Made by a program: the position numbers. This document shows, piece by piece, positions 3,001-9,000 of a stretch of DNA of 22,148 bases. Within the stretch, counting starts at the first letter, position 1; each line of letters opens with the position of its first letter. Location of the stretch: positions 1-22,148 of IMG/VR virus record IMGVR_UViG_2703718801_000008, one strand, 5' to 3'. Source of the stretch: a virus. Taxonomy: Duplodnaviria; Heunggongvirae; Uroviricota; Caudoviricetes.

Positions 3001-6000
3001 TGGTGCCTCATATGCACTGAATCCGGGTATTGAGATTGACAGTACTTTAATGACTGTTGATTTTCCCACAAAACCGCTGAATTTTAAGGCGACCGGTGGA
3101 TTTGGCTCGGTTCTTCTTGAATGGGATATGCCTAATTATCGCGGACATTCACTGACTGAAATCTGGCGGGGTACGGAGGATGACCTTGCTGATGCAGTGC
3201 TGGTTGCCACGACGCCGGGGCAGGTTTACGGCGATCCGGTTGACCCTGGCTGGTCGGGATTTTACTGGATACGTTTTGTTAACGCGGCAGGAGTGAAAGG
3301 TCCATGGAATGCTGAAAAAGGCACTCAGGCACAAACACAGATCGGCGTGAAGGCCATCATTGACCAGATCCGCGATGAGGCTGCAAAGTCGCCGGTTGTG
3401 TCCGAGCTGCGTAAAGAAATAAAAAACGCGCAGGGGCAGGCTGTAAAGGATGCTGCAATTAAGACAACCGAAGTTGTAGGGACTCTCAGGGAAGAAACGA
3501 CAAGAACGATTGGTGGTATTGAAACCCGCATTAGCACACTGGATTCGTCAACCAGTGAATCGCTTAATGAGGTCGACAAGCGCATCACTAAATTGGATAA
3601 AGAAGGCGGTGAAGCTTTTCTTGCAATGTGGTCAAAAAAAGCGGGAGTTGATGGTATCACTGCGGGGATCGGGATTGTCGCCGGAAAAGACAGTGAAGGC
3701 AGGCCTGTAAGTCAGGTTGCAATTTCTGCGTCGCAGTTGTTTGTCTTTGACCCGAATAATCCGGATAACACAGCCTATCCGTTTGCGGTATCAGGTGGCA
3801 AGGTAGTGATCCCGAAAGCGATGATTTATGACGCGGTGATTGAAACACTGGTGTCGCGGAAGGTTGTGGCGGATGAGGTAAAAGCCGGGGTAAGTATCAC
3901 TTCGCCAGTTATCCGGAGTGCCGTTATTCAGAACGGAAACTTTCAGGTTGATTCTCAGGGTAACCTGAATATTGGAGGCCTTTTCAGTGTTACGTCACAA
4001 GGGCAACTGACAATTCGTTACTCTAATCAGAATGTAGGACTGGTGATCCGCAATGATAAAATTGAGGTTTATGACCAGAATGGACGACTGGCTGTTCGCA
4101 TAGGCAGATTACGCTGATCAGGAGGTGAGTATTGGAATACGGTTTTGCCATTTATAACAGAAATAACGTTAATGTTACGGGCGTGCTGACTCCAGTATTT
4201 TTCCTGGACAGATTTACAGCGGAGTCTGGCTCAAAGACGTACACTAATAAACCCGACGGGAAATCATTGCAGGCTGTATGTTGTTTATTTCCCTGGAATA
4301 ATGTATTTGCGGATCGGAAAGTACCGAAGATAACCATTAATGACAATACGGTGACGTGGTCGAATCTTGAGCAGGGTATGGGATCTTATATTTATACATT
4401 CTGGGGATAAGTGTTATGTACGGTTTGAGCATTATGAAGCCGGATGGCAGCGTATGGATAAGTCCAGGTTTTACGCCGCAGTGTCTGATCAACAAAGGCA
4501 CCATACCGGCGACTGAAAAGTCTTTTTTTAAAACATCAATCCCGTCAGGCAAAAGTTGTTTTTTCTTTATCAGAACAGAGAAGAAGGCCGATGTCATGTA
4601 CACGCATGAACAGATTGATGGATATCATGCACTAAGGCTTCATGTAATTGTCAGGGGAACGAACCCTGGTGTTACGACGGTTTATGCTTTCGCGAATATG
4701 GTTACTCCACCTTCTGAGTATGGTATCGCCATGTATAACCCGGACGGTGAGATGATTTATCATGGCGAAATGATGCTGCTTGACGCGAAGTTAATACCTG
4801 TTGATATCAAATTTGAAAAGGACCTTGGATATCCATGCGCAATCATGCCTGCACTGGTCGGGTATTATAACTGGAAAAGAACTCCTTATGATCGACCGAT
4901 TTATACCACATCCACTGGTGCTACAGGAAATAAAATATATTCCTGTGAGCATTATTCCGGTGGTGCAACATGGGATATTCGAAAGCCGTATATAGATAAG
5001 GTCCTGGTTATTAATACATCAGTATATGATTAGTTGAAGCGAGTCTTTAATATTCATTTAAAATGTCTAAAAAGATGTATTATTAAAAAGTTTAGCGTGT
5101 TATCTGAATACAGGATATCTTAAATGAAGAGTATAGCAACACTGGTTGTGTGTGCAATCTCCGGGATTGCCTGTGTAAATTTATCTGCACATGCAGCAGA
5201 AGGAGAGCATACAATTTCTCTGGGGTATGCGCACTTTCAGTTTCCGGGACTGAAGGATTTTGTAAAGGATGCGACTGCTCATAACAGGGAGACTTTCAGT
5301 CATTTCGTCAACAGAAACTACTTTTCTTCATTGGGCGAATATACAGATGGTCGGGTCAGTGGATATGAAGGCAAGGATAAAAATCCACAGGGCATTAATA
5401 TCAGGTATCGCTACGAGATAACGGATGATTTTGGCGTTATCACCTCTTTTACATGGACGCGTTCTCTCACTAACTCACAGACATTTATTGATGTGCAGTC
5501 AGCCGATCATACCAGGAAGATTAAGAATCCGGCAGCTTCTGCCAGAACGGATATCAGGGCGAATTACTGGAGTCTGTTAGCGGGGCCTTCATGGCGGGTT
5601 AATCAGTACATGAGTTTATATGCGATGGCAGGGATGGGCGTTGCTAAAGTTAGCGCTGACCTGAAAATTAAGGACAATATTAACAGTAGTGGCGGATTTT
5701 CTGAAAGCAACAGCACGCAAAAAACCTCCCTTGCGTGGGCTGCAGGTGCACAGTTTAACCTGAATGAGAGTGTTACACTGGATGTGGCTTACGAAGGTTC
5801 CGGCTCTGGCGACTGGCGCACGAGTGGCGTTACTGCTGGCATTGGCCTGAAATTCTGACCTGTATCCGGTAACCGTTTACTACCCGCTGTGATGGCGGGT
5901 TTTTTATTGCCCGTACAGGGCAAAAACCGTAAATTATGCGTGGGTGCCTTTCGGCTGATGGCTGGAGGGTGAACCTGAAGGCCTGATGTGGAAAGGCCCC

Positions 6001-9000
6001 GAGTCAACTTAACGTTAACCCGAGGCCCTAACACTTCGTACCTTAAGCAAGTAGAAGGTTAGCGCCTCTCTGTAAAAGGAGTCAAGCGCTATGTCGCAAA
6101 AATCGCTTATCACCGTCACAATTTGCATGACGGTTATCTTCACCATCTGGATGTTGCACGGTTCACTGTGTGAGTTCCGGCTGAATTTGTGGGGAGCGGA
6201 GTTTGCGGCGTTCTTACAGTGTAAGCAGTAGGAAAACCGCGACGGGGACGAGAGTCCCCGTCAACTGGTTGCTGAGGTTCAGCCGATATGGCACCCGTTT
6301 CAGGTGAGAGAATGAACGATAAAATTCTCTGGTATATGCAGCGTGTTGTGAGAAATTCCCGCAACCCTGAATTTATGAATGAAGTTAAAGACGCCTGCCT
6401 TAAAAAGCAGGCGTTTTGTTTTGAGGCACCTGATGGCTTTCTGGTGCTGCGTTCTGTGCTCAGTGCTGATGGTATCCCTTATGTTCTGGTGTTGCTGGGC
6501 GTGTGTACGGGGAGTAACAGCGTTGAGCGTTATCTGCCGGAGGTGAAGACATTAACCCGTCTGGCTGGCGGACGTTGGGCTGAATTTCATACGGCAAGGC
6601 GGGGATTTATCCGGCTGGGAAAAAGTCTGGGCTTTGAGCGAATGCCGGATGATGAGGATGGCTTCATGGTGTTCAGGATAGCGGTCTGACTGCCACAGTA
6701 TTCATTATCGTGTGTAAACCAATTGCAATTCACATTCTGACCCTGCCCCGGCAGGGTTTTTTGTTATCCAGGGGGGGCCATTATGGGTGGAAGTAAAGGC
6801 GGTGGTGATACCAAAGTAAAACCAACAGCAGCGCAAATAGCACAGGAAGAAGTGGCCTGGAAAGGGTGGCAGGATTACAAAAATATCCTCCGCCCGGCTG
6901 AAGATAACTTCATGGAAAAGGTCGATGACCTGAACAGTGAGCAGCAGTACGACAATATTGCTGGCACCACAAATCTGGGGTATCAGAAACAGTTTGGCGA
7001 AGCACGGAAGAAGCTGGCGGGTAATCTTGCTCAGTCCGGTGTTGACCCGTCCAGTGGTCGCTTTAACGCGGTAATGAATGCGAACCAGAGTGATCAGGTA
7101 ACCGGGCAGATTGACACAACCACACGGGGGCAGGTATCGCAGGCAGATAAGTATGTTGCCGGGCTACAGGATGTTGCAGCTCTCGGTTCAGGTCAGAAGG
7201 CGGATGCGTTACAGAGTTTTAACTCGCTGGCAGACAGCAGTCTGGCAAAAGCTAAATCGGACGCACAGGCTGCGTTTACGAAACAGCAGGGGCGAGCCTC
7301 TCTTGTTGGCGCTGGTTTGGGTGCGGTAGGTGCATATGCGATGCATAAGGCTGGTGGTAGCGGAGGAAGTGGCGGTGCTAAAACACCGGGCACCGGCGCT
7401 AATGCCATTCAGCATCAGGCTCAGAACTGGAGACTGTGATTATGGAGTACGGTAAATACGAAACACTTGCGAGATACGGTTATACCGGAGCTGCCCGTCC
7501 ACAGGGTGACTGGCAGACGTCAGCAGCGCTGACACGCCAACAATACGACGACTGGCGAACCAGATATTTGCCCCGCGTGGCAAGGCTGGCTGATCTTGGC
7601 GAGAACAACAGCCTGATGAATGCACAGCTTGCCCGGGTGGGCGGCCTTGCCACTTCCAGTCTCCGTACAGCGCAGATGGCGCAGGATAACCAGATGGCGA
7701 GATACGGGGTAAGCCGCCCGGATAATCCCGACAGTAATACGCTGGGGTTACGTAATGCCCTGGCAATTGCTGGCGCGAAAAATGGTATCCGTGAAGCCGA
7801 ACAGGATCGCCAGATGAACATACTGACGGGGGCTTCTGCACCGGCAAGACAGAAACTGAGTGTTGGCGGACAACTGGTGGCAGCGTAAGGAGGAAATATG
7901 GGGTACGGCTTACTGGATATTGCGAATCAGTCACGGCGTGAGGCATTACAGGGAATAAGTGACGCAGACCGACGACGTGAAGAAATTGAGGCTGCGAACA
8001 AACAGATGGCGGCGCAACAGAAAGCGCAGAACAAGCAGAATATCGGTACGGGCATTGGTACGGGGGCGGCTATTGGCGCATCCGTTGGTGGTCCTGTTGG
8101 TGCTGTTGCTGGAGCAGTAATTGGCGGCATTGCTGGTTCTTTGTTTTAAGGAGTGGTGAATGAGCGGATTTGCACAGGGGTTACTTGCCGGATTCAGCAC
8201 GGTTGACCAGGCAATGACCCGTCGTAAGGAGCTTGGTCTGCGTGAAGCACAGCTTGCCCGGCAACAGAAAAATAACGAGCGCGATTTTGAGTTTGCGCAG
8301 TCTCAGTTTGAACATAATAAAAACGTTGATCAGCGGAACTTTGATTACAGAGCCAAAGTTGACGACCGTAATTATGCACTGAAGGAAAGGGAGTTTAACG
8401 CTAACCAGAATTACCGGAATGCGTCGCTGGGTATGGAGCAGCAGCGACTCCGGATGCAGAAATACAACCAGCGACGGCTTGAGTATAACGATATGCTGGC
8501 GCGCGATCAGCCTGTGATGGCGGCGCTTGGAAAGGCTGTGGATGCTGGCGATCGGGATGCAGCAATGCGTCTTTACGGCCAGTTGTCAGAGGGTAATCCG
8601 CTGAGGCTGATGGCGAATGATGGCTATGTAGCGAAAGCGGGTCAGGCCGTGAACAACCTGCAAAAAATCTTTGATGACAAGCCAGACAGGGCTATCGCTT
8701 CACTTAATACGCCGGAGAATCTTGATGTCCTTTCCGGGGTGTTTGGCCCGGAACTGCAACAGCGTATTGGCATGCCCGATTCAACCGGGAAAAAGACGAT
8801 AAAAGAGGCCAGGATTGGCAGTATAGTACCGGCACAGCAGGAAGGGTACATACTTATCGGCCTTGATCTCACATACAGTGATGGCTCTACAGCACATAAA
8901 CCTGTAACAGAATACGGCAGTGCGCACCCTGATGATCAAACCGTGCTGGCGATACCCGTTGATAAGGCTATCGCTCAGGTCAGGGATCGCAGCAAATTTG

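Follow-up and report, generated by a model that had tools for sequence, protein, structure and literature searches.

The 22,148-nt stretch of DNA analysed here (the window) comes from a 933W-like Shiga-toxin phage and very probably carries, as an accessory gene after lom, a complete hok/sok-type type I toxin-antitoxin cassette. This cassette occupies about 390 nt (5907-6296) between lom and the next late-region gene, has a hok/sok RNA architecture, and lies in a region that is 100% identical to phages 933W and VT2-Sakai. Its orientation is the same as that of the phage late operon. A preliminary description of this DNA had proposed a hok/gef-type type I toxin locus, a reading now borne out by Pfam and PHROG matches, DNA homology, RNA folds and a predicted Sok-like unit. 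It had also called the locus unannotated, which holds for the original 933W GenBank record but not for RefSeq, where the identical protein is a "Hok/Gef family protein" (WP_000078907.1), nor for recent phage records, whose automated annotation of the CDS reads "MokW-like host killing". In one source the name given to the identical protein is 'protein HokA', and the same peptide is found on at least 1000 contigs. As a toxin-antitoxin module the locus is of a well-known type, and its Hok/Gef label already stands in public databases. Toxicity, antisense neutralisation, RNase III cleavage and mRNA 3′ processing have been described for R1 hok/sok and hokW-sokW only (PMC9841398, PMC8621323), and a literature search found no experimental study of the transcript, toxicity or antitoxin activity of the 46-aa hok locus. 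The features of the cassette are as follows.

5907-5935, plus strand: predicted hok promoter; -35 TTGCCC at 5907-5912, 17-nt spacer, -10 TAAATT at 5930-5935
5942-6296, plus strand: predicted full-length hok mRNA of about 355 nt, from homology span, MFE fold and covariation
5942-5958, plus strand: tac-like 5′ element GGGUGCCUUUCGGCUGA, predicted to pair with 6279-6296 (full-length) or 5990-6000 (3′-shortened)
5988-6062, plus strand: leader frame of 24 codons, a mok-like remnant, from GTG 5988 to TAG 6060-6062
6022-6068, plus strand: predicted Sok-target hairpin; lower stem GAGGC/GCCUC and CUAAC/GUUAG, loop CUUAAGCAA with a YUNR motif
6048 to about 5988, minus strand: predicted Sok-like antisense RNA of about 61 nt; 14-nt single-stranded 5′ tail, 16-bp hairpin, UUUCC
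6085-6056, minus strand: predicted Sok promoter; -35 TTGACT at 6085-6080, 18-nt spacer, -10 TAACCT at 6061-6056
6076-6231, plus strand: hok RBS (AAGGAG, 6076-6081) and CDS (6091-6231, 46 aa, stop included)
6241-6262, plus strand: 3′ stem-loop of 9 bp with a GAGA loop, from fold and compensatory changes
6265-6296, plus strand: fbi-like 3′ fold-back region; 6265-6272 with the target-loop region, 6275-6281 with 5970-5976, 6279-6296 with tac

The toxin frame agrees with what had been seen at the outset: a 46-aa ORF with a good RBS, a single transmembrane helix and the Hok signature. The ORF at 6091-6231 (+) encodes MSQKSLITVTICMTVIFTIWMLHGSLCEFRLNLWGAEFAAFLQCKQ, and AAGGAG lies nine bases 5′ of its ATG. 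Kyte-Doolittle hydropathy peaks at residues 6-22 (mean 2.32), and the Pfam HOK_GEF profile PF01848 matches at E 4e-8 with 33.2 bits (gathering score 22), residues 8-44 aligning to profile positions 6-42 of 42. PHROG 251, 'MokW-like host killing', matches with E 2.8e-24. The layout is that of Hok/Gef peptides, with one hydrophobic helix at the N-terminus and then a polar domain carrying Cys-Glu and E-x-A-x-F. The alignment with Hok family members proposed earlier keeps the L-C-E...E-x-A motif against HokW, HokC and HokB; L26, E28, E37 and A39 are invariant and C27 is common to HokW and HokC, at overall identities of 35% to HokW and 26% to HokC and HokB. The best NCBIfam match is HokA, but its 38.4 bits fall below the cut-off of 89 for the equivalog NF007290, making the peptide a Hok-family member and not HokA proper. 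By this sequence comparison, the locus is therefore assigned to a separate 46-aa Hok subfamily, common to P2-like prophages and Salmonella. Purifying selection on the Hok peptide is strong. Codon differences within the phage clade comprise 10 synonymous and 0 non-synonymous changes, those in all relatives 25 synonymous versus 14 non-synonymous, at 29 versus 109 sites, and the ORF is intact in 45 of 46 variants, the remaining one lacking the last residue only.

Folding, covariation and conservation counts were taken over a set of 46 distinct relatives. The RNA folding that had been suggested as a check on 5′-3′ pairing gives paired ends, with an MFE of -155.4 kcal/mol and z -6.6 for the full-length RNA. 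Among the relatives 93.8% of cells are paired, and both-side changes amount to 113 cells versus 47 in shuffles. The preliminary description had noted complementarity between a 3′ segment and the 5′ leader; a 7-nt match at 5970-5976/6275-6281 is real, with three pairs that change on both sides and a covariation score of 0.263, sliding the partner giving no more than 0.076, but the main lock was missed. This lock is formed by GGGUGCC/CGGCUGA (5942-5958) with UCAGCCG/GGCACCC (6279-6296). It extends to 6296, so the element ends there and not at 6287 as first given. The tac/fbi pair 5942-5958 and 6279-6296 is paired in 99.4% and 89% across the 46 relatives; covariation says little here because the helix is nearly invariant, and neighbouring long-range helices do covary in the same set. 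The full-length fold also pairs 6047-6054 with 6265-6272, with two compensatory pairs. At the 5′ end tac aligns with GCGGGTGC of hokW, hokC and hokB, and hokB homology likewise ends with GGCACCC. The GAGA hairpin at 6241-6262, noticed from the start, is confirmed as a 9-bp stem (-19.7 kcal/mol, z -4.1) that is 100% paired in the relatives; both sides of its top two pairs change in 18 of 46 and 25 of 46 (AU to GC; AU to CG or GC).

The predicted fold of a 3′-shortened form, 5942-6264, contains the alternative arrangement of a hok mRNA, in which tac pairs with the ucb-like GGAAAGGCCCC at 5990-6000 and the hairpin at 6022-6068 is present. This hairpin also forms in the isolated segment (z -4.1). 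Its upper stem and loop occur in 18 distinct variants, all of which keep the hairpin, while the lower stem is invariant and YUNR lies in the loop of 16. The tac/ucb helix is essentially invariant in the 46 relatives, its pairing being a prediction only. The predicted full-length and 3′-shortened folds both place the hok start codon inside a 15-bp helix with 6192-6208, which is invariant in the relatives.

Opposite the leader, the antisense Sok-like promoter that had been listed for examination is predicted at 6085-6056, with a conserved minus-strand -35 and -10. Its sense sequence AGGTTAGCGCCTC is invariant in the 46 relatives, and -35 variants among relatives are TTGACT, TTGCTC, TTGCCT and TTGTCT. 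The promoter position fits the mapped start at 6048, to which the annotated starts of SokW (933W), SokC and SokB (K-12) align, their ends aligning to 5986-5992. The predicted RNA folds at -32.5 kcal/mol (z -5.6) in the tail-plus-hairpin layout of SokW. Pairing of its 5′ tail is predicted at -49 kcal/mol on its own leader and at about -20 to -22 kcal/mol on that of hokW, and the 46-aa hok locus is predicted to be orthogonal to hokW-sokW of the same phage family. The Rfam sok model, which is built on the sense leader, matches 5942-6104 with 35.6 bits (E 2e-6), and no match anywhere in the window reaches its gathering score of 59. The Sok-like RNA is consequently listed neither in the annotation records examined nor in transcript surveys based on Rfam.

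A promoter scan reported nothing in the region. The Sok promoter is missing from its output because it scores 8/12 to consensus; the predicted hok promoter, also 8/12, lies under the scan threshold. The pattern ATTG(C/A/T)N-17 nt-TAnA(T/A)T keeps a constant spacing to GGGTGCC in the Stx phages, the P2-like prophages and Salmonella, whose upstream contexts are otherwise unrelated, and the hok -10 aligns with TAGAAT (hokW), TATAAT (hokC) and TAGGAT (hokB). The inverted repeat at 5907-5923, first read as part of the hok mRNA, does fold (6 bp, 5-nt loop, -9.9 kcal/mol, z -3.1) but overlaps the predicted -35 and spacer upstream of the transcript start, outside that RNA. Relatives of about 80% identity in other genomic contexts share homology over exactly 5922-6296, stopping at 6296 on GGCACCC. 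The same interval is present in Salmonella and in P2-like prophages, where it adjoins ogr and serS, and the homologous stretch, annotated Hok/Gef, occurs in 1675 of 5426 complete E. coli genomes.

The mok frame of hok/sok systems is the element that is absent. As had been observed earlier, no intact mok-like frame exists in the window, each of the three frames being closed by stop codons ahead of hok; the position of the mokW/mokC/mokB start (6036-6038) has no start codon, and the sole leader frame terminates at TAG 6060-6062, leaving 31 nt to the hok ATG. That frame begins in an invariant GAUGUGG, which provides ATG 5986 and GTG 5988. From the same ATG/GTG, 15 of the 46 distinct relatives have a frame of 61-79 codons that runs through the hok start and stops 80 nt or more into hok; the leader frame of the other 31 is truncated. 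Whether a copy has the long frame makes no difference to the peptide it encodes. In R1, mok stop codons upstream of the hok start suppress toxicity (PMC9841398), so mok translation up to the hok RBS is mandatory there. The earlier suggestion that regulation may differ from R1 is correct for the window copy, which is without a mok frame.

From the predicted folds, the R1 literature (PMC9841398) and the hokW study (PMC8621323), the following sequence of events can be proposed. In the full-length hok mRNA, tac at the 5′ end and fbi at the 3′ end would pair and lock the molecule, and the 3′ segment would also hold the Sok-target region; with both locked, this form would be neither translated nor bound by Sok. 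Slow 3′ trimming would release tac, which would re-pair with 5990-6000 and let the target hairpin at 6022-6068 form. Sok would bind the refolded mRNA, and the duplex would be destroyed. Once the unstable Sok is lost, Hok would be made, insert into the inner membrane and depolarise the cell. Since no mok frame is found at the hok RBS, Hok translation would either initiate at the strong hok site itself or depend on coupling to the leader frame (GTG 5988-TAG 6060).

Points against a complete cassette are the missing mok overlap, the hok start within a 15-bp helix, the sub-threshold Rfam score and promoters at 8/12. It could be argued that the locus is a translationally silent relic in which mok was lost, the structure at the hok start is never opened by ribosomes, and the RNAs are leftovers. 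The closed frames upstream of hok, the mokW/mokC/mokB start position without a start codon and the burial of the hok start in an invariant helix all fit such a history, as do the truncated leader frames of 31 of 46 distinct relatives and the R1 finding that toxicity is lost when mok is stopped prematurely, upstream of the hok start (PMC9841398). However, the phage-clade peptide is identical despite 10 synonymous changes; with 109 of 138 sites non-synonymous, the chance of this under neutral drift is roughly (0.21)^10, about 2e-7. None of the 46 variants has a broken ORF apart from the one short by its last residue, the promoters, tac, fbi and target hairpin are conserved with compensatory changes, and the same peptide is encoded whether or not the long frame is present. 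A silent relic is thus improbable.

Identity with the characterised hokW-sokW of Sp5/933W has a probability close to nil and is refuted by sequence comparison. The phage family is the same and the automated CDS name invokes MokW, but HokW has 51 aa (MKQQKAM...) and is 35% identical, and the two loci are 13 kb apart in 933W on opposite strands, hokW/mokW/sokW at 58460-58734 and the 46-aa hok locus at 45429-45859. A search of the window for the hokW start sequence gives no hit even when 3 mismatches are allowed, and no sok match in the window attains the Rfam gathering score. That a chance short ORF and chance hairpins happen to share an intergenic spacer is scarcely credible: the ORF is indeed short and the promoter scan empty in the region, yet profile matches (Pfam E 4e-8, PHROG E 3e-24), homologues in 1675 of 5426 complete E. 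coli genomes, fold z-scores of -4 to -6.6 and the covariation already refute it.

The proposed hok/sok-type cassette can be set beside the systems already described. Like R1 hok/sok (parB), it has a small single-helix peptide of Pfam Hok/Gef, a predicted mRNA of the 350-400-nt class with tac/fbi pairing, a predicted alternative tac/ucb pairing with Sok-target hairpin in the 3′-shortened form, and a predicted short Sok-like antisense RNA with single-stranded 5′ tail and terminator hairpin opposite the leader just upstream of hok. Unlike R1, where mok overlap of the hok RBS and start is mandatory, the window copy has none; its peptide has 46 aa versus 52 and ends ...AAFLQCKQ, its carrier is the late region of a temperate phage and not a plasmid, and it scores 35.6 bits with Rfam sok (gathering score 59). 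With hokW-mokW-sokW of 933W and Sakai prophage 5, which has experimental tests behind it (Takada et al., 2021, PMC8621323), it shares phage family, kind of module and RNA layout, and its predicted Sok-like RNA has the leader positions and shape of SokW. Nevertheless, that locus is separate, 13 kb off in 933W and on the opposite strand, its toxin is 35% identical, it has an intact mokW that shares the hokW frame, and the Sok 5′ tails are not cross-complementary (-49 versus about -20 kcal/mol); the window lacks hokW. The K-12 hokA-E loci (hokB/mokB/sokB, hokC/mokC/sokC) resemble the window copy in leader and 3′ elements, which are homologous; its entire leader and 3′ end can be aligned as DNA with hokW, hokC and hokB through GCGGGTGC, GAAAGGCCCC, GGTTAGC and GGCACCC. 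The Sok start, predicted for the window copy, is 43-48 nt ahead of the hok ATG in both. HokB and HokC are 26% identical to the window peptide, and the K-12 loci are fixed chromosomal sites, whereas the window subfamily resides in prophage cassettes that are mobile (Stx phages, ends of P2-like prophages).

As a discovery, little depends on the locus, the identical peptide already being listed in RefSeq as Hok/Gef. Shiga-toxin phages of the 933W/Sp5 type carry two different hok cassettes. Deletion of hokW-sokW alone in Sp5 had only a two-fold effect (PMC8621323), and the deletion strains retain the 46-aa hok locus, so redundancy may have masked phenotypes. A tentative, rather doubtful suggestion is that the 46-aa Hok subfamily works without mok, gated only by RNA folds and Sok or by the short leader frame, as a second lysis-assisting or prophage-stabilising module beside hokW-sokW; if so, the effect would be no more than two-fold because the 46-aa locus remains. 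With its mok frame lost and its toxin strongly conserved, the locus is a natural case for asking whether every member of the family depends on mok coupling.

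The small open reading frame between lom and the next gene belongs to the Hok/Gef family of type I toxins, and the hok/gef-type locus proposed in the preliminary description is confirmed. The 46-aa frame lies at 6091-6231 (+), and the good ribosome-binding site attributed to it is AAGGAG, nine bases 5′ of the ATG. Its product passes the Pfam Hok/Gef threshold (33.2 bits vs 22) and has one hydrophobic stretch (residues 6-22), matching the single transmembrane helix described. Window 5860-6290 is 100% identical to 933W (AF125520, 45429-45859), to VT2-Sakai (AP000363, 44470-44900) and to many other Shiga-toxin phages; the best match of the whole window is to short-tailed Stx phages, e.g., Shigella phage POCJ13. 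The cassette has the following neighbors:

5124-5858, gene for an Ail/Lom outer-membrane protein, upstream of the cassette (Pfam Ail_Lom, 113 bits)
5882-5906, intrinsic terminator 3′ of the Ail/Lom gene, before the cassette
6288-6689 (+), homolog of 933W L0129, downstream of the cassette

The PHROG 610 alignment of the L0129 homolog starts only at residue 9. Its true start is therefore probably ATG 6312, which follows GGTGAGAG; with that start, the hok 3′ end (6296) falls outside the L0129 coding sequence. Farther along, at the place near the right end where 933W carries its published hokW-mokW-sokW locus, window 18278-21697 (-) lacks hokW and instead holds DUF551, ead/Ea22-like, DUF4752 and Ant genes. 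Just past the end of the POCJ13 homology (21709) is an Rfam match to sRNA-Xcc1 (RF02221) at 21738-21826 (-), with 69.1 bits vs a gathering score of 53. In EDL933, this RNA family is listed near the 933W prophage end and is highly expressed (PMC5331693).

The limits of the cassette emerge from comparison with relatives. Those of about 80% identity occupy differing sites, including P2-like prophage ends beside ogr and serS, Salmonella and IMG/VR contigs, and the segment that they share with the window is exactly 5922-6296. Conservation also defines a predicted hok promoter, in which ATTGCC and TAnATT are separated by a 17-nt spacer and keep a constant distance to the start; with it the cassette reaches back to 5907. 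The hairpins described at 5907-5923 and 6241-6262 both fold as reported; since the hok promoter reaches 5907, however, the first is an inverted repeat in promoter DNA and lies outside the mRNA to which it had been assigned. A generic promoter scan of 5800-6400 reported no promoter, and both promoters discussed here were inferred from conservation together with alignment to annotated loci.

The predicted full-length RNA (5942-6300) folds with its 5′ GGGUGCC and CGGCUGA paired to 3′ UCAGCCG and GGCACCC (6279-6296; z -6.6), a pairing that in this model is the lock between tac, the mRNA 5′ end element, and fbi, the 3′ fold-back segment. Across 46 distinct relatives (alignment A2), 93.8% of this fold is paired, with compensatory changes both in the 3′ hairpin and in the helix 6047-6054/6265-6272, which in the predicted fold sequesters the Sok-target loop. 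The 5′-3′ fold-back of the preliminary description survives as a covarying feature, reduced to 5970-5976 with 6275-6281, probably an extra or alternative contact within the fold-back; the lock itself runs nine bases beyond the end previously given. When the last ~35 nt are removed, tac is predicted to re-pair with the invariant GGAAAGGCCCC (5990-6000), and in the 3′-shortened RNA a predicted hairpin at 6022-6068 exposes the loop CUUAAGCAA.

A putative Sok antitoxin was mapped by aligning the locus to annotated hokW/mokW/sokW of 933W and to hokC/mokC/sokC and hokB/mokB/sokB of K-12. The start sites of SokW, SokC and SokB all fall on window 6048 and their ends on 5986-5992. The minus strand has two predicted features:

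-35 TTGACT 6085-6080 and -10 TAACCT 6061-6056 (-), predicted Sok promoter, the -10 lying within a block invariant in all relatives
61 nt (-), predicted Sok-like RNA in which a 14-nt tail is followed by a 16-bp hairpin and UUUCC

The predicted shape is the same as that of SokW. At the Rfam gathering threshold the window gave no sok match, the only hit being sRNA-Xcc1, away from the cassette; with the threshold relaxed, its sok model matched the sense leader at 35.6 bits, below its cut-off of 59, which accounts for the absence of an annotated RNA here. A RIBOseq/RNAseq paper on EDL933 lists sok from Rfam matches only. Computed pairing of the Sok-like tail reaches -49 kcal/mol on its own leader vs only -22 kcal/mol on the hokW leader, and likewise in the reverse comparison. 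With each tail weakly matched to the other leader, cross-talk between this cassette and hokW-sokW should not occur.

By far the most variable region of the cassette is the upper stem and loop of the target hairpin (window 6030-6055 and its equivalents in A2), with 18 variants and indels among the 46 sequences. Because of these indels the upper stem was assessed by folding each sequence separately: every variant still folds on an invariant lower stem, as would be expected if an antisense RNA recognizes this fast-diverging site. The stems on either side of this variable region and the C-terminal half of the toxin are invariant down to the nucleotide level, a contrast that suggests diversification of antisense specificity.

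The absence of an intact mok-like frame, as first described, holds: stops occur in all three frames upstream of hok, and the start positions of mokW, mokC and mokB (window 6036-6038) have no start codon. The sole leader frame runs from GTG 5988 to TAG 6060-6062, ending 31 nt 5′ of the hok ATG. It was ruled out as a conserved 24-codon coding frame, as frame and stop vary among relatives through target-hairpin indels. In 15 of the 46 relatives, five of them in the phage clade, a frame of 61-79 codons starts from an invariant GATGTGG and crosses the hok start; a mok-like frame is thus a feature of the subfamily, though frequently disrupted by these indels. In plasmid R1, toxicity is lost when mok carries stops ahead of hok (PMC9841398), which makes a silent locus, with hok untranslated for want of mok, a real rival reading. 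However, hok codon variants in the phage clade comprise 10 synonymous and 0 non-synonymous changes, and those of the whole set 25 synonymous vs 14 non-synonymous, against 29 and 109 available sites, respectively. This excess of synonymous variants implies that the Hok peptide is made and under selection.

Identity with hokW-sokW was rejected: the window lacks the sequence of the hokW primer, and hokW lies 13 kb off in 933W with 35% identity. The experimental paper on Sp5 (Sakai prophage 5) deals with hokW (51 aa), a different locus. The original 933W record annotates hokW/mokW/sokW and leaves the present site blank, and literature searches found no study specific to it. The identical protein is nevertheless already in RefSeq E. 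coli genomes as WP_000078907.1, "Hok/Gef family protein", and is labeled "MokW-like host killing" in PV189404 and RefSeq NC_025434. At least 1000 contigs carry the identical protein, and 1675 of 5426 complete E. coli genomes a homologous stretch. Contigs that bear this cassette of E. coli/Shigella phages but are filed as Xanthomonas pisi, a Planococcaceae MAG and Vagococcus sp. (L006, L007 and L009) look like contaminants of those assemblies. One 37-kb IMG/VR contig (L059) has two cassettes of the 46-aa Hok subfamily with differing upstream contexts.

The cassette is an ordinary, already annotated member of the classic hok/sok family, and its identification is correct. The Sp5 strains of the hokW-sokW deletion study retain this cassette, 100% identical to the window copy, as a second hok locus, whose redundancy could have reduced the two-fold phenotype reported (PMC8621323). 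The interest that remains is modest: the mok frame is absent while the toxin is clearly under selection, and Stx phages of this type hold two hok cassettes, predicted to be orthogonal, only one of which has been studied.
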